Shown here piece by piece: positions 9,503-46,353 of a stretch of DNA of 46,353 bases. Each line of letters starts with the position of its first letter. Position 1 is the stretch's first letter. The notes under the pieces are model-generated. The model ran no database searches and was not told where the DNA came from. It was given only the letters and a program-made list of their open reading frames with translations. Source of the DNA: a virus. Made by a program: the position numbers and the translations under genes. The stretch is taken from the IMG/VR virus record IMGVR_UViG_3300045988_042187; one strand, 5' to 3'.

Positions 9503-10054
9503 GTGCCCAACTATGACATCATACCGCTTGCCACTGATCTGCTGGACTACACCATCCAGCGGGTCAAGGTCAAAGAGCCCCAATACACCAAGGTCAAGGC
9601 CTATGTGATGGAAAACGGCCAGATGGTGGAAAAGGAGCTCTTTGAGAAAATCAAGGATGACGGCAAGCCTCACTTTCCCAAGAGCCAGACTTTCCACATG
9701 TGCGCTGACATGCAGCGCATGGCCAGCGCCATCCTCCAGAAATGCAACTCCGCTGATGGCCGTTATTTTGAAACTGAGTATGAGGAACGCCTCAAGGACC
9801 TTGATGAGTTCATCGTCCTCTGCGACACTCTCAACCAGTACATCAACCTGAGCTATAAGCGCAAGTACATCTCTGGTGACCAGTGCCACTACTGGGCAGA
9901 GCTGGTGCGCCCGGTCCGTCAAAAGGCTTTCAACTGGAAACGCAATGACAGCAACCGTGCCGCCGCTCTGCGTGAGGCAAAGGCCAACCAGGAGCTTGCC
10001 AAAATGGGCCAGATGGCCCAGCAAATTGCTGAGGCCCTGGCCCGCAACCCCTGA
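9503..10054 (+). CDS. avd: Avd-like DGR accessory protein (four-helix-bundle family) with an insertion
   Basis: Lies immediately upstream of the TR. The segment HFPKSQTFHMCADMQRMASAILQKCNSADG resembles the FPK..e....q..RAa.Si..NiaEG signature of Avd / S23-IVS four-helix-bundle proteins. Basic C-terminal helix. Confidence 0.55.
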   Translation: MPNYDIIPLATDLLDYTIQRVKVKEPQYTKVKAYVMENGQMVEKELFEKIKDDGKPHFPKSQTFHMCADMQRMASAILQKCNSADGRYFETEYEERLKDLDEFIVLCDTLNQYINLSYKRKYISGDQCHYWAELVRPVRQKAFNWKRNDSNRAAALREAKANQELAKMGQMAQQIAEALARNP

Positions 10055-10109: not shown

Positions 10110-10210
10110 GCTCCCCGAACACGAACAACACCAACAACGCCGTTTACTTGAACACCAATGGCAATGTCAACAACAACAACTGCACCAACACCAACGGGTC
10201 CCGCCCCGCT
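10110..10210 (+). repeat. DGR template repeat (TR), 101 nt with 34 adenines
   Basis: Aligns without gaps to 11928..12028 and, over its 3' 65 nt, to 19007..19071. In the target frame it encodes 14 AAY (Asn) codons and ends with GGGTCCCGCCCCGCT, which is shared by all three copies. Confidence 0.9.
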
Positions 10211-10435: not shown

Positions 10436-11461
10436 ATGAAATTTTCTGAAATATGCACCTTTGCGGTGATCTATGCGGCATACCTGGCCGCCCGGCGGGG
10501 CAAACGCTCCAGAGCCGCCACCGCACACTATGAGGTGCGCCTGCTTGAGAACATCGTCAACCTGGTCTATATCCTAAAAACCAAGATTTACAGGCCCGGT
10601 GTGTTTCGTGTGTCCTATGTCTATGAGCCCAAGAAAAGGCTGGTGCAGGCACCCGCTTTTGTGGACAAGGTGGTCCAGCACGCCATAGTGGACAATCTCC
10701 TCTATGACCGCATCACCCGCAGTTTCATCCTGGACAACTACGCATCCCAAAAGAACAAGGGCCTGCACTTCGGCCTGGACCGGCTCAAAGGATTTTTCAC
10801 GGACTACTGGAATAAGCACCGCACCGCTGAGGGCTGGGTGCTCAAGTGTGATGTCCGCCATTTCTTTGCAAGCATCAACCATGACAAGCTCAAGGAAAAG
10901 CTCAAAAAGCTGGACCTTGAGCCTGTTGTTTATGACCTGCTTTGCATCTATATTGACTGCTCTGACGGCCTGCCGCTGGGGTATCAGACATCACAGCTCT
11001 TTGCCCTCCTGTTCCTGGATGACTTTGACCACTTCGTCAAGGAACAGCTCCACATCCAATACTATGGCCGCTACATGGATGACTTTTTCCTCATCCACCC
11101 GGACAAGGAATACCTGCAATTCTGCCTCCGGGAAATACGGGCCTACATGGATAGCCTGGGGCTGGAACTGAATGAGAAAACCCAAATCTTTCCCATCCGC
11201 AATGGCATTGACTTTTTGGGCTTTCACACCTACCTGACGGAAAGCGGCAAGGTCATCCGCAAGCTGCGGCACAGCAGCATCAAGCGGATGCGTGCCAAGC
11301 TCCGCCACTGGGAAAAGGAATACCCGGCGGGCCTGGTGACCCGTGAGCAAATCCTGCAATCCTGGCAGGCGTGGGATGCCCACGCCGCACATGGCAACAC
11401 TTGGGCCCTGCGCCAACAGGTGCGGGACCGTGTGCAAAATATTCTAAAGGAGGAAATCTGA
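10436..11461 (+). CDS. DGR reverse transcriptase
   Basis: Contains YMDD (GRYMDDFFLIH) and the DGR-type motif 4 (LPLGYQTSQLFALLFL). Adjacent to a TR/VR pair. Confidence 0.92.
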   Translation: MKFSEICTFAVIYAAYLAARRGKRSRAATAHYEVRLLENIVNLVYILKTKIYRPGVFRVSYVYEPKKRLVQAPAFVDKVVQHAIVDNLLYDRITRSFILDNYASQKNKGLHFGLDRLKGFFTDYWNKHRTAEGWVLKCDVRHFFASINHDKLKEKLKKLDLEPVVYDLLCIYIDCSDGLPLGYQTSQLFALLFLDDFDHFVKEQLHIQYYGRYMDDFFLIHPDKEYLQFCLREIRAYMDSLGLELNEKTQIFPIRNGIDFLGFHTYLTESGKVIRKLRHSSIKRMRAKLRHWEKEYPAGLVTREQILQSWQAWDAHAAHGNTWALRQQVRDRVQNILKEEI

Positions 11462-11464
11462 TCT

Positions 11465-12685
11465 ATGGCCACAACCACCCTGGGCAACAAAGCCGTGGGC
11501 AGCATCATCCAGCTTAAGGAAAACGGCAAGCTGGTGAGCTTTTATGTTGCCAAGCACAACTATGAAAACGGCCTCAACGGAATGGGCCGCACGCTGGTGG
11601 TCCGCAAGGACTGCTATGACACCCGCCAGTGGCACAGCTCCAATGTCAATGCCTACGCCTCCAGCGCCATTGATAGCTGGCTCAACGGCACCTACAAAAA
11701 CCTGCTTGATGCAGACATCCGTGGGGTCATCGGCACCACGAAAATCAAGTACACCCCCGGCAACGGCAACAACACCGTTGGCACGCTCCAGCGGGCCATT
11801 TTCCTGCTGTCTGCCACTGAGCTGAACAGATCGGCAAGCTGGTTTAATGTGGAGGGCACGGCGCTGGAAATCGCCAGCTCTCTCCAGATCGCCTACATGA
11901 ACGGCTCCGCCGTTGTTCAGTGGACCCGCTCCCCGGGCACGGGCAGCACCGTCAGCGCCGTTTGCTGGAACATCGTTGGCGGTATCAACAACGGCGGCTG
12001 CACCGACACCCACGGGTCCCGCCCCGCTTTCACTCTCCCCTCCACCCTCTCTGTGAGCGATGACGGCACTGTGTCCGTCAACACTGCGCCCACCATCACC
12101 AGCTCCACGGCCAACGGCTCCAACCTTGGCACCAAGACGGCGGGCTTTAACTTCCAGTACACGGTCAACGATGTGGACGGGGACGCTGTGACGGTCAAGG
12201 AGTACCTGGACAATGTGCTCAAGCGCACCTACACCGCAACCCTGGGCCAGGTCAACACATTCCAAGCTGTCACGGCTGCCAACTGGCAGAAAATCCTCAA
12301 CGGCTCCCACACCCTCAAGGTGGTGGCCTCTGACGGCAAGGCTGACAGCGCCGCCTACACGGTGACCTTTGCCAAAAAGGTGACCAAGGCCACTGTCACG
12401 CTGGCAGCGCCGCTGGCGGCGGATGATGCCATTTCTGTGATGGTTATGAACATCGTGGGCACCCTGCCTGCGGATGCGGTCATGGAGGTGCTGGTCACCA
12501 ACAACGCCAAGGACACCACCCCCGTCTGGGAGGATGCCACGGCGGATGTCAAGAATGGCGCAAACCATGTGTTTACCAATAAGACCGCCGCCAACGGCTT
12601 TGCGTTCAACTTCAAGCTCTCTGTTGAGCGTGGAGCCAGCGACACCGGCGGCTATATTTCTAACATCGGAGGTGCTTTTGAATAA
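11465..12685 (+). CDS. DGR target protein 1: N-terminal variable ligand-binding domain (ends ...CTDTHGSRPAF) followed by about 215 aa of Ig-like-looking C-terminal domains; probable receptor-binding or fibre protein
   Basis: Contains VR1 and has a strong RBS. Its N-terminal ~190 aa are paralogous to ORF 18592..19173. Location in the fibre module. Confidence 0.85.
   Translation: MATTTLGNKAVGSIIQLKENGKLVSFYVAKHNYENGLNGMGRTLVVRKDCYDTRQWHSSNVNAYASSAIDSWLNGTYKNLLDADIRGVIGTTKIKYTPGNGNNTVGTLQRAIFLLSATELNRSASWFNVEGTALEIASSLQIAYMNGSAVVQWTRSPGTGSTVSAVCWNIVGGINNGGCTDTHGSRPAFTLPSTLSVSDDGTVSVNTAPTITSSTANGSNLGTKTAGFNFQYTVNDVDGDAVTVKEYLDNVLKRTYTATLGQVNTFQAVTAANWQKILNGSHTLKVVASDGKADSAAYTVTFAKKVTKATVTLAAPLAADDAISVMVMNIVGTLPADAVMEVLVTNNAKDTTPVWEDATADVKNGANHVFTNKTAANGFAFNFKLSVERGASDTGGYISNIGGAFE
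11928..12028 (+). repeat. DGR variable repeat 1 (VR1)
   Basis: Hand alignment to the TR gives 22 mismatches in 101 nt. Of these, 19 are at TR adenines and 3 are at non-A positions (11967, 11973, 11984). Confidence 0.9.
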
Positions 12686-16019: not shown

Positions 16020-16049
16020 ATTATAGTTTGCACCCTGTCTGCGTGTCAA
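16020..16049 (-). promoter_or_regulatory. Near-consensus sigma-70 promoter on the minus strand (TTGACA-18 nt-TATAAT) driving 15987..15284
   Basis: The reverse complement reads TTGACAcgcagacagggtgcaaacTATAAT. Confidence 0.7.
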
Positions 16050-16070
16050 GTATTGGAGCCTTTATTGATA

Positions 16071-16098
16071 ATGACATACCAAATGCGCAAACTATAAT
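16071..16098 (+). promoter_or_regulatory. Divergent plus-strand promoter (ATGACA-16 nt-TATAAT) for the first XRE gene
   Basis: ATGACA at 16071-16076 and TATAAT at 16093-16098. The -10 context GCAAACTATAAT mirrors that of the minus-strand promoter. Confidence 0.5.
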
Positions 16099-16410: not shown

Positions 16411-16441
16411 AGCGGCTCACTTTTCGTGGGCCGCTTTTTTG
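16411..16441 (+). terminator. Rho-independent terminator
   Basis: 10-bp stem AGCGGCTCAC / GTGGGCCGCT followed by a T6 run. Confidence 0.8.
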
Positions 16442-16444
16442 TTC

Positions 16445-16473
16445 TTGACTTCATACACCTTTTGGTGTATAAT
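16445..16473 (+). promoter_or_regulatory. Sigma-70 promoter TTGACT-17 nt-TATAAT with an embedded 18-bp palindrome (ATACACC-TTTT-GGTGTAT, 16453..16470)
   Basis: Read directly from the sequence. The palindrome spans the spacer and the -10 element, as an operator would. Confidence 0.7.
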
Positions 16474-16739: not shown

Positions 16740-16749
16740 AGCCTTTTCT

Positions 16750-16780
16750 GGCGGGGTGTTCATCACCCCGCCGCTTTTTT
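16750..16780 (+). terminator. Rho-independent terminator
   Basis: GGCGGGGTG-ttcat-CACCCCGCC followed by GCTTTTTT. Confidence 0.8.
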
Positions 16781-16801: not shown

Positions 16802-17848
16802 ATGAATTACAAGGGCTTTCATCAACTGCAATGGGAGGACCGCCTGGTCATTGAAAAGATGCTCAAGGTGGGTGACAGCAAGGCCAAGATCGCTGAGGCG
16901 CTGGGCGTGTGCAAAAAGACCATCTACAACGAAATCAAACGGGGATGGACCCAACAGATGACCTCTGACTATGAGTTTATCTGGTGCTACTGCCCGGAGA
17001 TGGCGGAGCGCAAATACCAGGAAAACCTCCGGGCCAAGGGGCCGGACCTCAAGATTGGCAATGACATTGACTTTGCAAACTATGTGGAGCAGAAAATTGT
17101 GGAGGAGCACTATTCTCCCGCCGCTTTGTTGGCAGAGCTCAAGGCAAAGCCGCCCCAGTTTGACACCACGGTCTGTGAGGCCACGCTCTACAATTACATC
17201 TACCGGGGTGATGTGTTCCTGGTCCTCAACCCGGAGCACCTGCACGAAAAGGGCCGCCGCCACTATGGTGAGAAATACGGTGAACAACGGAACGCTGCCA
17301 GAGCCGCCAAAGGCCCCCGCATTGATAAGCGTGACCCCATCATCAACTCCCGCACTACTTTTGGCCACTGGGAGATGGACAGCGTGATGGGCACCGTGGG
17401 CTCCAGCCGGGCGCTGGTGGTGCTCACGGAACGGCTCACCAGGGCGGGCATCATCCTCCCGGTGCCAGACCATACCGCTGCCAGCGTGGTCCGGGCGCTC
17501 AACGGTCTGGAGCGCCGCCTGGGCAAGGACTTCTACCCCATGTTTCAGAGCATCACGGTGGACAATGGCTGTGAGTTTCAAGACTACGATGGTATGGAAA
17601 AGGCCTGCCGCCGGAAAGGAAAGCGTACCACCGTTTACTACTGCCACCCGCACGCACCACATGAGCGTGGCAGCAACGAGAACATGAACAGGATAATAAG
17701 GCGGTTTTTCCCCAAGGGCACCAACTTTGATGAGGTGCCTATCTCAGAGATACGCCGGGCAGAGGAGTGGATGAACAACTATCCACGGGAGGTGCTGGGG
17801 TGGCAGACAGCGGCCACCCTCCTGCGGAGCTACATGAGCGCCTGCTGA
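16802..17848 (+). CDS. IS30-family DDE transposase
   Basis: N-terminal HTH (KIAEALGVCKKTIYNEIKRG) plus catalytic-region motifs HWEMDSV, TVDNGCEF and HERGSNENMNRIIRRFFPKGTNF. Confidence 0.9.
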   Translation: MNYKGFHQLQWEDRLVIEKMLKVGDSKAKIAEALGVCKKTIYNEIKRGWTQQMTSDYEFIWCYCPEMAERKYQENLRAKGPDLKIGNDIDFANYVEQKIVEEHYSPAALLAELKAKPPQFDTTVCEATLYNYIYRGDVFLVLNPEHLHEKGRRHYGEKYGEQRNAARAAKGPRIDKRDPIINSRTTFGHWEMDSVMGTVGSSRALVVLTERLTRAGIILPVPDHTAASVVRALNGLERRLGKDFYPMFQSITVDNGCEFQDYDGMEKACRRKGKRTTVYYCHPHAPHERGSNENMNRIIRRFFPKGTNFDEVPISEIRRAEEWMNNYPREVLGWQTAATLLRSYMSAC

Positions 17849-17999
17849 TCTGCCGCACAATAAAGCTGAACGCCGGAGCCCTCGGAGGCCACCGGCGCTG
17901 TTGTCATGCCAAAATGCAGAAAAACGCACAAAACAAGCCGCAAATAGCACGGCTCATTTTGTGCGTTCGTACAACTTTACAAGTTTATTGTAATTTATT

Positions 18000-18028
18000 C
18001 TTGACTTTTTGCTAAGCAGCCCCGATAA
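18000..18028 (+). promoter_or_regulatory. Sigma-70 promoter TTGACT-17 nt-GATAAT
   Basis: Read directly. It shares the TTCTTGACTT context with 16004..16013 and 16442..16451. Confidence 0.6.
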
Positions 18029-18029
18029 T

Positions 18030-18072
18030 TGAGTTACACACCAAGAGATTGGTCGTGTAGCTCAATTTTTTT
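18030..18072 (+). terminator. 33-bp imperfect palindrome followed by a T8 run; either a terminator for read-through from the transposase or a protein-binding palindrome
   Basis: GAGTTACACACCAA-gaga-TTGGTCGTGTAGCTC, then AATTTTTTTT. The 5' arm starts 2 nt after the -10 element of the 18000 promoter. Confidence 0.5.
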
Positions 18073-18096
18073 TATGCCGGTAAGGAGGTGAACGCA

Positions 18097-18345
18097 TTGG
18101 CAGACTACGCTTTCCGCTCTTATGAGGAGCGGCAGAAAATCCAGGAGATGGTTGAGGCAGGCCTGAGCGCCAAAGACATTGCCGCCTCTCTTGGCATCTC
18201 TCCCTCCGCAGTCTATGCGGAGCTGAGGCGTGGCCGGGACGGCACAAGGCTCCCTGACAAGCGCCTGGGCTACAACGCCGAACTTGCCCAGCTCAGTGTC
18301 CAGCAGGGCCTTGAGCGGAGAGGCCGCCGAACTGCCGGGGCATGA
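18097..18345 (+). CDS. Stand-alone IS30-type HTH (HTH_38-like) DNA-binding protein
   Basis: RSYEERQKIQEMVEAGLSAKDIAASLGISPSAVYAELRRG parallels the transposase N-terminus LQWEDRLVIEKMLKVGDSKAKIAEALGVCKKTIYNEIKRG. A TTG start with an AAGGAGG RBS is preferred. Confidence 0.65.
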   Translation: MADYAFRSYEERQKIQEMVEAGLSAKDIAASLGISPSAVYAELRRGRDGTRLPDKRLGYNAELAQLSVQQGLERRGRRTAGA

Positions 18346-18381: not shown

Positions 18382-18588
18382 GTGAGCAACAACCCCATTG
18401 TGCTGAAAAGCAACCGGCTTTCTGATGAGTGCATCGGAACTGTCCGGCTGACCCCGGAGGCGGAGAAAGTGGTCCGCCGTCTGAGGGCAAAGACCGCTCT
18501 GCCCATCCGGCAGATTGTATCTGAAATTATCGTCCAGGCCGAAAACCTCATCGACATTGAGGGGCCGGAGGACACTGAGGAGGATTGA
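18382..18588 (+). CDS. Small protein, possibly ribbon-helix-helix
   Basis: GTG start 8 nt after AAGGAGG. The VRLTPEAEKVVRRLRAKTALPIRQIVSEII pattern resembles a beta-strand/helix RHH motif. Confidence 0.5.
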   Translation: MSNNPIVLKSNRLSDECIGTVRLTPEAEKVVRRLRAKTALPIRQIVSEIIVQAENLIDIEGPEDTEED

Positions 18589-18591
18589 CCA

Positions 18592-19173
18592 ATGAAAACC
18601 GCTATTTCTAATGTGGCCCCCGGCCAGGTGGTCAAGTTTCATGGGGAACCCTGCATTGTGCTGGAGCACCGCACGGCTGGCACCTTGCTGGTGACCGCCG
18701 CCCAGATTAAGAGCTCTTTTGGCTCCACCAACAACTTTGCTGCCAGCTCTTTCCGTGAGCACCTCAACGGTGCCTTTGCGGATGCCCTGACTGAGGGCCA
18801 CGCTGATGAGCTCATCACCCGTGAGGTTGACCTCACCGCCCTCAACGGCTCCAAGGAGTACGGGAGCTGTGAGTGCAAGGTGGCCCCGCTGACCTTTGAT
18901 GAAATCCGCCGTTTCCACGGTCTGCTGCCCAAGCCTGAGAGCTGGGAGTGGAGCGCCACGCCCTGGAGCACCCCCTGCGTGGATGAGGATGATACCTGGG
19001 TCATGGGCTTGTACACCAATGGCAATGTCGGCGGCAGCCGCTGCACCGACACCGGCGGGTCCCGCCCCGCTTTCCTCATCCCCTCCCAGTATGCCGTGGA
19101 GGCTGATGGCGGCCTGGACCAGTACGCCACCAATGAGCTGATTGCGGAAATCAACCGCCGCATGAACGGTTAA
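18592..19173 (+). CDS. DGR target protein 2: a 193-aa stand-alone variable domain paralogous to the N-terminal domain of target 1
   Basis: Contains VR2. Motifs shared with target 1: (A/S)SS(A/F)..(W/H)LNG(T/A)(Y/F) and the ending CTDTGGSRPAF. Strong RBS, and no signal peptide visible. Confidence 0.85.
   Translation: MKTAISNVAPGQVVKFHGEPCIVLEHRTAGTLLVTAAQIKSSFGSTNNFAASSFREHLNGAFADALTEGHADELITREVDLTALNGSKEYGSCECKVAPLTFDEIRRFHGLLPKPESWEWSATPWSTPCVDEDDTWVMGLYTNGNVGGSRCTDTGGSRPAFLIPSQYAVEADGGLDQYATNELIAEINRRMNG
19007..19071 (+). repeat. DGR variable repeat 2 (VR2), 65 nt
   Basis: Hand alignment to TR 10146..10210 gives 12 mismatches, all at TR adenines. The terminal GGGTCCCGCCCCGCT is identical. 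Confidence 0.88.
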
Positions 19174-19183
19174 GGTGAGCGCC

Positions 19184-19897
19184 ATGACCACCAGTGAGCC
19201 CAATGCCCGCCGGTATTCCCGGCGGTGCCGCCAGCGCCGCATGGCCCGGAGGCGCAACGCCATGGTCATCATGGCCATTCTGGCCGTCCTTGCCACTGTG
19301 TTTGCTCTTGGCTATGCCAGCGGATGCAGTGCCCACCAGACGGACGATGGGGTCAAGACCCCTGAGCCCGTGGTGACAGTGGAAACCGTCACCCCTCCAG
19401 CCCCGGAACAGAGCCCCGTGGAGCCCTCTGCACCACCAGAGGAAACCACGGAGCCTGCCCGCCACCGTGATGACATCGTGAGTGAGGGGCGGCTCCTCAG
19501 CTACGAACTCCAGGAAGTCATGCAGGACTGCTGTGAGCACTATGAGGTGCCCTATGCTCTGGCCCTTGCCATCGCAGAGGTTGAAACCCACTTTGACCCC
19601 GATGCCGTCAGCGCCACTGGTGACTATGGCCTCATGCAGATCAACTCTGTCAATCACGAGTGGCTTTTGGAAAAAGGCCTTGACCCCATGACCCATGCCG
19701 GGAACATTGAGGCCGGTATCTATATCATCTCCCAGTATCTCCAGAGCTACGGAGAGCCAGAGCTTGCGCTGATGGCCTACAACTGCGGGCCCGGCGGCGC
19801 AAGAAAGCTGTGGGATGCAGGTACATACCAGACCGACTACTCCCGCAAGGTTATGACCGCTTTTGAATACTGGACAAGCGTGCTGGAGGTTGACTGA
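19184..19897 (+). CDS. Membrane-anchored lytic transglycosylase (SLT domain)
   Basis: Arg-rich N-terminus, a TM helix, a Pro-rich linker, and the SLT motif ALALAIAEVETHFDPDAVSATGDYGLMQIN. Confidence 0.8.
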   Translation: MTTSEPNARRYSRRCRQRRMARRRNAMVIMAILAVLATVFALGYASGCSAHQTDDGVKTPEPVVTVETVTPPAPEQSPVEPSAPPEETTEPARHRDDIVSEGRLLSYELQEVMQDCCEHYEVPYALALAIAEVETHFDPDAVSATGDYGLMQINSVNHEWLLEKGLDPMTHAGNIEAGIYIISQYLQSYGEPELALMAYNCGPGGARKLWDAGTYQTDYSRKVMTAFEYWTSVLEVD

Positions 19898-33697: not shown

Positions 33698-34032
33698 GCG
33701 ATAATCTGAATATTAAACTGCTGAAACAGCACGCCGCCATCCTGGAAACGGCCCTCCAGACCGTCAACAATGTTTCCAAGAGCATCACAGAGGAGGCAGC
33801 GGCCCTGGATGCGGAGCTTGCGCCGGTCCAGGATGCCACGGATGCGCTGGTGGCCTGCGAGAGGGCCCAAGAGCGTGCCCGCTTTGCTGAGGCGAAACTG
33901 AACAAGGCCGTGGCGGACCTGCGCTTTGTCATGGCCGGTGGTGACCCTTGCCGGGTGTGTGCCGTCAAGTGCACTTTTGGTGAGGGCAACTGCAAACCCG
34001 TGTGGCGTGGAGAGGCTGGTGCTGATTTGTGA
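33694..34032 (+). CDS. Hypothetical coiled-coil protein with a C-terminal Cys cluster
   Basis: ORF with an ATGA overlap. Confidence 0.5.
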   Translation: MSDNLNIKLLKQHAAILETALQTVNNVSKSITEEAAALDAELAPVQDATDALVACERAQERARFAEAKLNKAVADLRFVMAGGDPCRVCAVKCTFGEGNCKPVWRGEAGADL

Positions 34033-46254: not shown

Positions 46255-46353
46255 GAGCCTGCCCGTCAAGGAGCGTGCTTTTGTCATCGCCTCTATTGAT
46301 GCCCGCTGTGCGGCGGAGCGGAAAAAAGAGGCGGAACTCAAGAACAAAGCAAA
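46255..46353. repeat. Terminal direct repeat, copy 2 (identical to 1..99)
   Basis: Exact identity read by eye. Confidence 0.95.

Follow-up and report, generated by a model that had tools for sequence, protein, structure and literature searches.

A small remote DUF6273 protein as second target of a DGR in a common human gut phage lineage

Phage DGRs with a small DUF6273 protein as second target have already been described (PMC10743442; PMC11792537; 10.1101/2024.10.15.618418; PMC12629997, Nature 2025). The second target of the gut phages nd4 and nd12, tgt2 (Baykov 2023, PMC10743442), is a small protein made up of DUF6273 only, with a C-lec-like AlphaFold domain and short flanking helices. Its variable repeat (VR) occupies the domain's 3' end, where it forms a beta-hairpin, and the same template repeat (TR) serves a tentaclin, in which an N-terminal DUF6273 domain is combined with Ig-like domains. 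All these traits are shared by the protein that we describe here. Baykov 2023 (PMC10743442) counted tgt2 among the cassette components and took it for a receptor binder like Mtd. In the Faecalibacterium phages Lelie and Toutatis and the candidate prophage CP11 (PMC11792537; 10.1101/2024.10.15.618418) one TR likewise serves a large and a small DUF6273 target, and both VRs vary at adenines across cognate genomes; the second VR is found in a core gene at a distance, which amounts to 17.5 kb in Toutatis. The BPP-1 DGR has in common with our locus the order avd-TR-RT, adenine mutagenesis, a C-lec variable domain with a C-terminal VR, and a GC-rich 3' end with a discriminating flank. On intracellular or anti-defence targets of phage DGRs we found only a brief remark in the literature (PMC12629997). 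The earlier note on this DNA had called a DGR with two targets unusual. This view has to be given up, since remote pairs of a small DUF6273 protein and a tentaclin are published for gut Oscillospiraceae phages and were found here in many lineages; the two-target design with a small DUF6273 second target was known before from related gut phages.

We analysed a stretch of viral DNA of 46,353 nucleotides (IMG/VR record IMGVR_UViG_3300045988_042187), called the window in the following. Its phage looks like a near relative of Faecalibacterium prausnitzii phage FP01; the FP01 paper leaves a DGR unmentioned, calls the IS30 gene an inserted IS, and reports neither virion mass spectrometry nor adsorption assays. 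The cassette and its two targets are:

9503 to 10054, plus strand: Avd-like accessory gene, 183 aa (phrog_3206 'Avd protein of DGR', E = 1.7e-19), with the TR directly downstream
10110 to 10210, plus strand: TR, 101 nt with 34 A, found as a member of a repeat family; for VR2 of this genome the template is just the 3' 64-65 nt (10146/7-10210)
10436 to 11461, plus strand: DGR reverse transcriptase, 341 aa (RVT_1 E = 7e-19; generic RT model E = 2e-31)
11465 to 12685, plus strand: target 1, 406 aa, of 'tentaclin' type, with an N-terminal DUF6273 head and a C-terminal Hoc-like/Ig part
11928 to 12028, plus strand: VR1, within target 1, from the TR alignment
18592 to 19173, plus strand: target 2 (T2), 193 aa, with a small N-terminal beta-barrel, a DUF6273/C-lec-like domain, an acidic linker and a C-terminal helix

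The cassette thus has the order avd-TR-RT, the RT being assigned by domain and profile matches, and its one TR matches both VR1 and VR2. The TR is unchanged in three relatives (L014, L015 and L022). Target 1 matches DUF6273 over residues 41-193 (E = 5e-25, 88.7 bits) and the Hoc-like family phrog_10993 over residues 218-406 (E = 8e-85). It had previously been taken for a virion fibre protein; with its Hoc-like match target 1 is better described as a tentaclin, a Hoc-like protein of decoration type, than as an established fibre.

We scanned both strands of the window for TR 10146-10210, tolerating adenine mismatches and allowing at most four mismatches at other bases. Three places passed, namely the TR itself, VR1 (11964-12028) and VR2 (19007-19071), and this adenine-tolerant scan of both strands found no third VR in the window. 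The match proposed for T2 was re-found in this way: VR2 and TR are identical at 53 of 65 positions, each of the 12 mismatches falls on a template adenine and the 3' end is in common. With 22 adenines among the 65 positions, the chance that all 12 mismatches lie on A is P = 1.6e-7. VR1 differs from the TR in the same segment by 11 adenine and three non-adenine mismatches. Around VR2 we distinguish the following elements:

19000 to 19008, plus strand: GTC ATG GGC, probably a relic of TR codons AAC ACG AAC, from comparison with the relatives L030, L029 and L028
19007 to 19071, plus strand: VR2, with 12/12 mismatches at TR adenines; its working part is 19009-19071, codons 140-160
19057 to 19086, plus strand: GC-rich 3' end of VR2 (19057-19071) and VR-specific flank TTCCTCATCCCCTCC (19072-19086), IMH-like by position and by the difference between VR and TR

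The final 15 nt, GGGTCCCGCCCCGCT, are common to TR, VR1 and VR2 with no differences. The following 15 nt are similar between the two VRs (TTCaCTCtCCCCTCC and TTCcTCaTCCCCTCC) and differ in the TR (CTGATGGTAAGGCCT); VR1 and VR2 have the flank TTC(a/c)CTC(t/a)TCCCCTCC, where the TR has CTGATGGTAAGGCC. By analogy with BPP-1 we infer that the GC-rich end and the VR-specific flank may together act as homing signal. At the other edge, similarity to the TR ends 5' of 19007, so that VR2, with 65 nt compared with 101 nt in VR1, is truncated. Its first aligned base, 19007, is G where the TR has A10146, and it is G in all related copies compared except one; this base lies probably outside the working VR. 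Relatives carry length alleles at the 5' edge of VR2, and judged by the 200-aa allele the GTC ATG GGC at 19000-19008 is a probable TR relic left after a deletion of seven codons.

A truncated repeat might suggest that VR2 is a decaying relic which is no longer homed, and that its likeness to the TR stems from old paralogy with target 1 or from past gene conversion. In favour of this one could quote that VR2 covers only 65 of the 101 TR nucleotides and that there is no obvious hairpin downstream: no inverted repeat of 6 nt or more was found 3' of VR2, the sole one being GGCGGG/CCCGCC within the VR end. A hairpin or cruciform follows the VR in BPP-1, but such a structure is not universal and is not needed for membership among DGR targets. 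Read-level variation was moreover looked for in cultures of Lelie and CP11, and none was seen (Gulyaeva 2024, PMC11792537). However, VR2 has not a single non-adenine difference over 65 nt, although the two target proteins are only 26% identical. VR1 has three such differences in the same 65 nt, hence VR2 looks at least as recently homed as VR1.

The natural variation of T2 contradicts the idea of a relic as well. Public metagenomes hold 1739 homologues of T2 (193 aa), and one cluster at 90% identity comprises 15,778 distinct sequences. Variation is limited to residues 141-155 and there to adenine-containing codons. Among 120 homologues the column entropy exceeds 2.3 bits at residues 141, 143, 145, 147-150, 153 and 155, codons 152 and 154 vary too, less than the other hypervariable VR2 codons, and G144, V146, C151 and G156 are nearly fixed. 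At the DNA level, 12 of 13 close relatives that align without gaps have only A-site mismatches to the TR, 7-15 each. In 15 members of the cluster the VR peptide was unique to each, with mostly 1-5 further differences. VR2 peptides differing from one another run into the thousands, on a protein that hardly varies elsewhere. Among the T2 classes the truncated allele of 193 aa is the most diversified. The A-specific hypervariability expected at VR2 is therefore borne out by comparative metagenome data, which place variation solely at TR-adenine codons. A relic is extremely improbable in the face of these entropies, A-only mismatches and cluster members; sequence comparison across samples indicates that VR2 is an active DGR target. 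What marks DGR targets in general is found here together: a TR/VR pair differing at A sites, RT and Avd genes beside the TR, a GC-rich end with a distinguishing flank, and diversity in populations. The diversity potential of VR2 is about 2.5e12 peptides (15^9 x 4^3).

According to the earlier note T2 is a paralogue of target 1's variable head that stands by itself, and the protein comparisons agree with this. BLASTP aligns T2 with residues 62-201 of target 1 (E = 1e-9, 26% identity), and phrog_9958 matches both proteins, T2 at full length (E = 2.9e-42). Against Pfam PF19789 (DUF6273) T2 scores 17.1 bits, below the cut-off of 23.5, and a precomputed PF19789 match is present in many close T2 homologues. 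An AF2 model from a diverse alignment of 50%-cluster representatives reached pLDDT 94.4 and pTM 0.84; an alignment of close homologues and Lelie-type sequences gave only pLDDT 45.9. In the former model the VR residues form strands 146-150 and 154-157 and the intervening turn, and the N-terminal barrel comprises about 40 aa. Foldseek with this model found, as best fold match in the PDB, the DUF6273 domain of 9qa6 (E = 7e-5, TMq 0.62), further phage DUF6273 proteins in BFVD (TM 0.65-0.71) and DUF1566 (E = 8.9e-4), and only weakly classical C-type lectins (probability 0.1-0.25). In a profile search against PDB sequences 9qa6 was the sole match, a weak one (E = 0.0036). The structure comparison called for by the earlier note thus points to a DUF6273/C-lec-like fold, as in the head of target 1. 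T2 has neither a signal peptide nor a transmembrane or hydrophobic segment, nor a fibre part, as had been stated. It shares the fold, the VR position and the TR with target 1, which is the expected look of a second receptor binder.

T2 might indeed be a virion receptor-binding protein, an Mtd-like head docked on tail or capsid, perhaps through its C-terminal helix, with the DGR diversifying two recognition proteins. This role was proposed by Baykov 2023 (PMC10743442) and Egorov 2024 (10.1101/2024.10.15.618418), the common fold, VR position and TR fit with it, and the conserved C-terminal helix, set off by a flexible acidic linker, might serve as docking peptide. Among the proteins of the window, Brigit, Lelie and nd4, the strict motif of this helix is matched only by T2 of the window and Brigit gp06. 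However, T2 has neither the attachment domains of Mtd (beta-prism and beta-sandwich) nor the Ig anchor of tentaclins, and its gene lies 9 kb from the tail genes. Considering also its genomic position, we regard a virion binder as unlikely. The region in which the T2 gene is found contains:

16802 to 17848, plus strand: IS30-type DDE transposase, 348 aa, the phage integrase (HTH_38 and rve; phrog_4646 E = 1.6e-114)
18001 to 18029, plus strand: promoter-like TTGACT-17-GATAAT, from a consensus scan with no mapped start site; split by the attachment junction
18027 to 18067, no strand: 13-nt inverted repeat, arms 18027-18039 and 18055-18067, 92% complementary, directly 3' of the -10
18088 to 18345, plus strand: HTH_38 protein, 85 aa, first gene of the operon (HTH_38 E = 3e-10)
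18382 to 18588, plus strand: 68-aa ORF, its stop 3 nt ahead of the T2 start; synteny conserved
19175 to 19897, plus strand: membrane-anchored lytic transglycosylase (SLT E = 8e-20); ATG 19184 is the more likely start

An IS30-type transposase is present next door, as was noted earlier, but it is the integrase of the phage and not an inserted IS. Its gene forms the right end of the prophage: eight integrated copies run into eight different bacterial right flanks. Right junctions and left junctions, eight of each, were collected; their flanks are unrelated, and the two ends never came from one insertion. In a lineage whose copy is 57-59% identical the transposase gene is found at the same position. 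Because of this synteny and the position at the prophage end we reject the inserted IS of the FP01 paper. The enzyme has the properties of the IS30 family: HTH and DDE domains, defined ends, insertion at many sites and a circular form bridged by few nucleotides.

The phage ends, as defined from the integrated copies, divide the promoter-like site. The -35 hexamer TTGACT (18001-18006) belongs to the right phage end with its tip at 18012, a 3-nt bridge follows (18013-18015), and the left end, starting at 18016, holds the -10 hexamer GATAAT (18024-18029). In eight circular-form junctions both hexamers are kept at a spacing of 17-18 nt while the bridge of 3-4 nt varies. The inverted repeat at 18027-18067 might be a site for end binding or of operator type. 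In lysogens the T2 operon could still be expressed by read-through from host DNA. A sigma-70-type promoter for early or lysogenic expression had been postulated. A promoter-like site does exist, and as it spans the attachment junction, expression in the early lytic phase or from the circular form is favoured and lysogenic expression disfavoured.

In the leftmost operon of the phage T2 comes third among the cistrons, at a distance of 8.9 kb from the TR. Domain matches agree with the operon composition given before, that is an HTH_38 protein, a small ORF and a membrane-anchored SLT protein, and also the statement that T2 lies outside the structural module stands, as it sits in an early operon 9 kb from the tail genes. 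The 85-aa HTH_38 protein is paralogous to the N-terminus of the transposase (30-31% identity), the 68-aa ORF has no match in Pfam, PHROG or PADLOC, and the SLT protein has a TM segment (KD 2.43) after an Arg-rich N-terminus. PADLOC gave no defence-family match for T2, the 68-aa ORF, the SLT protein or a 180-aa ORF, and no anti-defence family was recognisable among them. In at least 12 lineages the surroundings of small DUF6273 genes are early, recombination or replication regions, and in none do these genes belong to a structural module. Early-region placement was seen in Brigit, Lelie and nd4, in L038-L043 and in L091, L093, L099 and L117; in distant lineages ORFs were called on the plus strand, because the DNA is GC-rich with spurious antisense ORFs. 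The neighbours in the lineages examined are regulators, recombination, replication or methylase genes. This placement argues against the published idea of a receptor binder, for which a gene in the structural module was found in no lineage examined; T2 itself is encoded at the genome end, in the operon that comes first there, downstream of a circular-form promoter.

The gene next to T2 raises a further possibility. T2 could act at the cell envelope with the neighbouring exported peptidoglycan hydrolase, in wall remodelling for superinfection exclusion, DNA passage or release, its variable face reading variable wall glycopolymers. In four lineages the small DUF6273 gene has a cell-wall hydrolase gene directly beside it, of SLT type in L040, L042 and the window and of Hydrolase_2 type in L039, with non-orthologous replacement, and the starts are tightly coupled. 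C-lec folds often bind carbohydrates, and the Arg-rich cytoplasmic tail of the SLT protein would suit an acidic T2. On the other hand T2 has no signal peptide or TM segment, four lineages are a small sample, and no hydrolase is adjacent in Brigit, Lelie, nd4, L093 and L117. We therefore judge an envelope role to be improbable.

Taken together, we think it likely that VR2 is an active second homing site of a single DGR and that T2 is a tgt2-type protein, expressed early from the circular form. A cDNA from the 3' two-thirds of the TR, with misread adenines, has repeatedly replaced T2 codons 140-160, a short strand-turn-strand segment of the DUF6273/C-type-lectin-like domain. Homing would be steered by the GC-rich end and the VR-specific flank common to VR1 and VR2, and imprecise joining of the cDNA at the 5' side could explain the truncated VR here as well as the length alleles in relatives. 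Judging from the anatomy of the phage ends, -35 and -10 would be united only in the circular genome, and T2 would then be made early after infection or excision and not from this promoter in the prophage. The terms early and non-virion are drawn from gene position only. The most probable function of T2, with chances that seem about evenly balanced, is that of a soluble intracellular binder outside the virion which acts early, on variable targets of host defence or takeover for instance, and not that of a receptor-binding virion protein. More speculative, and rather doubtful to us, is the general proposal that small stand-alone DUF6273 proteins are not virion proteins and are early cytoplasmic hypervariable binders, with which a phage would keep a pre-adapted repertoire against variable host targets inside the cell, such as proteins of defence systems, or which could steer an exported wall hydrolase. 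If either were true, phage DGRs would here for the first time have a target with a role outside the virion.

In human gut data this phage lineage turns up extremely often: 16,276 indexed blocks of the assembly collection contain the exact transposase protein, and variants of T2 number tens of thousands. With FP01 as a cultured relative on F. prausnitzii, the role of the small second target is directly testable. Receptor binding has been assumed in publications; the consistent position in early regions, the lack of an attachment domain and the promoter of the circular form point in another direction. Should the small target work intracellularly, phage DGRs would serve for more than host-range switching. 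The VR2 length alleles, found at its 5' edge, preserve in nature a record of cDNA joining at the VR's far end, a poorly understood step of retrohoming. The view that FP01-type phages are strictly lytic and lack a DGR is corrected as well.

Compared with known systems, T2 stands closest to tgt2, with a DUF6273-only layout, short flanking helices and a tentaclin on the same TR. It is homologous to nd4 tgt2 (tblastn E = 5e-17), with only about 36% identity over the N-terminal two-thirds, and the nd4 tgt2 gene adjoins replication and exonuclease genes, like small DUF6273 genes elsewhere. Unlike nd4 and nd12, T2 has a 5'-truncated VR, lies 8.9 kb from the TR in an operon with a junction promoter and has an SLT gene adjacent. 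Lelie orf58 and the Toutatis protein are T2 homologues with 27-29% identity; the Lelie, Toutatis and CP11 systems differ from the window in belonging to other genera, in a serine integrase, other neighbours and full-length VRs, and the function was left unstated or guessed to be receptor binding. Mtd of BPP-1 differs more: it forms the trimeric tip of the tail fibre, has 381 aa with beta-prism and beta-sandwich domains, and is a single target encoded in the structural region beside the cassette. The only solved DUF6273 structure, 9qa6, is the domain at the N-terminus of Thomasclavelia ramosa's IgA protease (PMC12402451), a secreted, wall-anchored bacterial protein and not a DGR target. A precedent comes from DGR sensors of multicellular bacteria: Dore et al. 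2024 (PMC10907252) describe cytoplasmic C-lec targets in conflict systems, where one RT serves several remote targets; these proteins are cellular, multidomain and putative antigen sensors, whereas T2 is phage-encoded with no recognisable effector domain. Against this background the new elements are the early-region placement in at least 12 lineages, the recurrent adjacency to a hydrolase gene, the length alleles at the 5' edge of VR2, and a promoter split by integration, for which an IS30-type transposase is responsible.

The phage genome in the window was assembled as a circle: bases 1-99 recur at 46255-46353, leaving a unique length of 46,254 bp with a GC content of 57.5%. Its DGR cassette lies past the tail genes. 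The features that matter here are the following:

9503-10054, Avd-like gene (phrog_3206, E = 1.7e-19)
10110-10210, template repeat (TR), A-rich, 101 nt
10436-11461, reverse transcriptase (RVT_1)
11465-12685, target 1 (406 aa), with its variable repeat VR1 at 11928-12028
16802-17848, IS30-type transposase
18592-19173 (+), target 2 (T2, 193 aa), containing the second variable repeat VR2
19129-19170, C-terminal helix motif of T2 (residues 180-193)
19175-19897, cell-wall hydrolase of the SLT family

Target 1 is a 'tentaclin', not a demonstrated fibre; its C-terminal part is Hoc-like (phrog_10993, E = 8e-85) and is joined to a T2-type head.

The second, remote match to the TR that the earlier note had described holds as written. 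VR2 (19007-19071) is identical to TR 10146-10210 at 53 of 65 positions, and all twelve mismatches fall on TR adenines (P = 1.6e-7 for 12/12 landing on the 22 adenines by chance). An adenine-tolerant scan of both strands of the window returned VR2 as the only match beyond the TR and VR1. VR2 is a truncated VR, since similarity to the TR stops upstream of 19007. At the 3' end GGGTCCCGCCCCGCT is common to TR, VR1 and VR2, while over the following 15 nt VR1 resembles VR2 and the TR differs. In BPP-1 such a 3' layout lets the DGR distinguish recipient from donor; by analogy, the shared 3' end and the VR-specific flank may act as the discriminator here. Over its last 65 nt (11964-12028) VR1 departs from the TR at three non-adenine positions (T>G, C>T, G>A) and VR2 at none; the remote VR therefore looks homed at least as recently.

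VR2 is an active DGR target. Diversification was judged across public assemblies, in place of read data, and it is the adenine codons that vary there, the A-specific pattern that the earlier note had proposed to look for. T2 has 1739 homologues at E <= 1e-3, and its top 90%-identity cluster comprises 15,778 distinct sequences. An alignment of the 120 best hits has columns with an entropy above 2.3 bits at residues 141, 143, 145, 147-150, 153 and 155 and nowhere else, with intermediate values at the ACC codons (142, 152 and 154); G144, V146, C151 and G156 are essentially invariant, and the remainder of T2 is nearly constant. Each of the 15 members examined from the large cluster has a unique VR peptide, and 14 of them show just 1-5 differences outside the VR, at recurrent polymorphic sites. 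At the DNA level, 12 of 13 ungapped close IMG/VR relatives have 7-15 substitutions relative to the TR, each of them at a TR adenine, and the TR is identical in all three relatives where it was captured. Although the proteins of targets 1 and 2 share just 26% identity, VR2 agrees with the TR at every non-adenine position. On this evidence a relic, or a purely paralogous copy, is excluded. The window VR2 has 12 variable codons (nine AAY and three ACC), which corresponds to about 2.5e12 peptides. One IMG/VR relative (L021, 4540-4700) contains the VR2 3' end twice, 68 nt apart with N between, probably an assembly artefact arising from VR hypervariability.

T2-type proteins in relatives are 186-210 aa long; in the set of 120 best hits we counted 41 of 193 aa, 20 of 200, 14 of 192, 12 of 194 and 14 of 205-210. 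We compared the 5' edge of VR2 at window 18970-19071 and in three related loci (L028, 1960-2066; L029, 4546-4646; L030, 10411-10501). In a prophage in GCA_048312195.1 (192 aa) VR2 spans all 101 nt, and A-site changes occur along its whole length. The 200-aa allele, whose VR begins at about TR 10118, contains an additional CVDEDDTW; the 193-aa allele of the window equals the 200-aa one minus seven codons, and GTC ATG GGC in the window is a probable relic of that loss. In the 210-aa allele the 5' part of the short VR precedes a new copy of almost the entire TR, and some alleles have a partial tandem duplication of TR-derived sequence. AACACCAA is present twice in the TR. On the simplest reading of these sequences, the length alleles seem to result from imprecise joining of the cDNA at the 5' edge: homing would be precise at the 3' end of VR2, and the far 5' joining might use non-allelic short homologies.

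T2 gives a sub-threshold Pfam match to DUF6273, matches target 1 by BLASTP (E = 1e-9) and aligns end to end with phrog_9958 (E = 2.9e-42), which target 1 matches too. The protein is acidic, and no hydrophobic segment was found in it. In AlphaFold a shallow alignment failed (pLDDT 45.9), and a diverse one gave pLDDT 94.4 and pTM 0.84. The model the earlier note had called for consists of a five-stranded N-terminal barrel (~1-42), a mixed alpha/beta domain, a linker (171-180, pLDDT 66) and a helix (180-192), with the VR residues on strands 146-150 and 154-157 and the intervening turn. DUF6273 structures are its best matches. In Foldseek the only significant PDB match is 9qa6 (E = 7e-5), the DUF6273 N-terminal domain of the T. 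ramosa IgA protease, and classical C-type lectins match weakly; the best BFVD matches are phage DUF6273 proteins (TM 0.65-0.71), together with one DUF1566 protein.

A full HMMER scan relates 786 clusters at 50% identity to T2, many of them of 180-230 aa. Many distant members (many of the P01xx-P02xx representatives) end in a conserved (S/T)x(D/E)ELLAEIxRR helix after an acidic linker; when the strict pattern was sought in the ORFs of nd4, Lelie, Brigit and the window, only T2 and Brigit gp06 had it. We surveyed the neighbourhoods of 13 sequence clusters and of annotated phages:

Neighbourhoods of small DUF6273 genes (T2, T2-type gene; x, other gene)
Brigit: integrase-cI-cro-regulator-T2-exonucleases-RecT
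nd4: LPD15-T2-RNase_T exonuclease, then SSB, DnaC
L039: HTH38-DUF3873-x-T2-Hydrolase_2-x-DUF2800
L040: T2-SLT
L041: methylase-x-T2
L042: serine recombinase, then SLT-T2, then helicase, methylases, ERF, YqaJ
L091: T2 gene near Lar-like gene
L093, L117: RecT or exonuclease, two tandem small DUF6273 genes, avd, RT
L099: sigma-r4, DUF6273, T2, x, PemK

No small DUF6273 gene was placed in a structural module in this survey. In phage contigs of 55-90 kb (L085-L123) two tandem small DUF6273 genes lie directly upstream of avd and RT (e.g. L093, 5297-8090; L117, 5290-8098), so that the whole cassette sits within the recombination module and the small proteins are adjacent targets. Brigit gp06, a small early-region DUF6273 protein (L026, 3936-4559), is likewise a VR-bearing target: its 7 mismatches to the Brigit TR (L124, ~33700-33770, about 41 kb off) are all at adenines. 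The original Brigit description names only the Hoc-like target. The published guess for such proteins is an Mtd-like receptor binder on the virion; the non-structural neighbourhoods argue against it, and for T2 we consider it rather unlikely. An envelope role together with a hydrolase seems less likely still. It would fit the gene of an exported cell-wall hydrolase that in four lineages adjoins the small DUF6273 gene, the hydrolase being SLT in three (the window; L040, 1053-1886; L042, 2718-3404) and the unrelated Hydrolase_2 in one (L039, 1770-2336), an adjacency suggestive of a functional link. In the SLT protein of the window an Arg-rich N-terminus precedes a TM segment that includes a near-lipobox (ASGC), and there is also a Pro/Thr/Glu-rich linker.

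In close relatives the order xre-xre-transposase-HTH38-o68-T2-SLT-o180-DUF2800-...-PolA is kept. It persists in a lineage in which T2 is 62% and the transposase 57-59% identical, and hence the phage carries the IS30-type gene as a resident. In eight long bacterial contigs the exact transposase is followed by ...CTTGACTTTTTGC and then by host DNA, with eight unrelated right flanks, and at eight other loci, among them scaffolds assigned by label to Vescimonas sanitatis and to Butyricicoccus pullicaecorum, unrelated DNA lies directly left of GCAGCCCCGATAAT (junction loci L125-L132, L029, L032 and L033; window 16802-18029). These integrated copies define the phage genome ends (18012 / 18016); in circular forms (eight contigs) the ends are joined via 3-4 nt that differ between contigs. 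The phage uses its IS30-type DDE transposase as integrase. IS30-type elements excise as a circle, and the phage ends behave in this manner. In the promoter-like site picked out by a scan, the -35 lies six nt in from the right end and the -10 eight nt in from the left end, with a spacing of 17-18 nt in all eight circular forms; no reasonable -35 was found in the one integrated copy examined (L029). Because -35 and -10 are on opposite phage ends, the T2 operon would be on in the circular genome and would not be driven from this candidate split promoter in the lysogen. Judged by gene position, protein architecture and the candidate split promoter, T2 would act early and outside the virion, a reading to which we give roughly an even chance.

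A 13-nt inverted repeat (AATTGAGTTACAC / GTGTAGCTCAATT, 18027-18067) sits at the left phage end, immediately after the -10, and may be an operator or a site bound by the transposase or HTH38. Strong divergent promoter-like sites, matching at 12/12 and 11/12 positions, lie on either side of the two XRE-type HTH genes, and a terminator-like hairpin follows each gene (16020-16098, 16411-16435, 16445-16473, 16749-16773), a layout that resembles a lysogeny switch. Prophages ~98% identical in the T2 region come from an uncultured Clostridiales MAG and from assemblies whose labels read Vescimonas sanitatis and Butyricicoccus pullicaecorum (L032, L033, L031; P0326), and 61-63% relatives from Faecalibacterium sp. 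An58 and Angelakisella. With FP01 plating on F. prausnitzii, this means that either the host range covers several genera or some assemblies are mislabelled or contaminated.

The earlier note regarded a phage DGR with two such targets as unusual. This is not borne out, as the same design was published in 2023-2025. The gut phages nd4 and nd12 each have a tentaclin as first and a DUF6273-only protein as second target, the latter with a C-lec model whose VR forms a hairpin (Baykov et al. 2023, PMC10743442). The Faecalibacterium phage Lelie and the candidate prophage CP11 have large and small DUF6273 targets, with adenine-linked variation at both VRs across cognate genomes for CP11 (Gulyaeva et al. 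2024, PMC11792537). In Toutatisvirus a second VR gene lies 17.5 kb from the TR and is present in 98.8% of the genomes (Egorov et al. 2024, 10.1101/2024.10.15.618418), and four prophage species have a distal second VR near counter-defence genes (2025 Nature paper, PMC12629997). Remote targets were undetectable by design in the large survey of Roux et al. The small proteins of Lelie, Toutatis, Brigit and nd4 are detectable homologues of T2.

A probable cultured relative is FP01 (vB_Fpr_FP01), a recently isolated phage that plates on F. prausnitzii (45,913 bp, 57.6% GC; PMC13432834). Its ORF table parallels the window gene for gene, in order as well as in ORF length (Avd-like 184; RT 342; DUF6273 407; IS30 349; 'unknown' 194; SLT 238), a kinship read from the table, not from sequence. 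The FP01 paper leaves the DGR unmentioned, reports a stray reverse transcriptase, calls the phage lytic with the lysogeny switch said to be absent, and calls IS30 an acquired insertion sequence (PMC13432834); the synteny conserved in the diverged lineage speaks against such an acquisition. FP01 makes the function of T2 testable, and it is this function that keeps the system of interest. Judging from the ORF table, a DGR with its two targets seems to have been missed in FP01, as does a temperate lifestyle with integration by the transposase.
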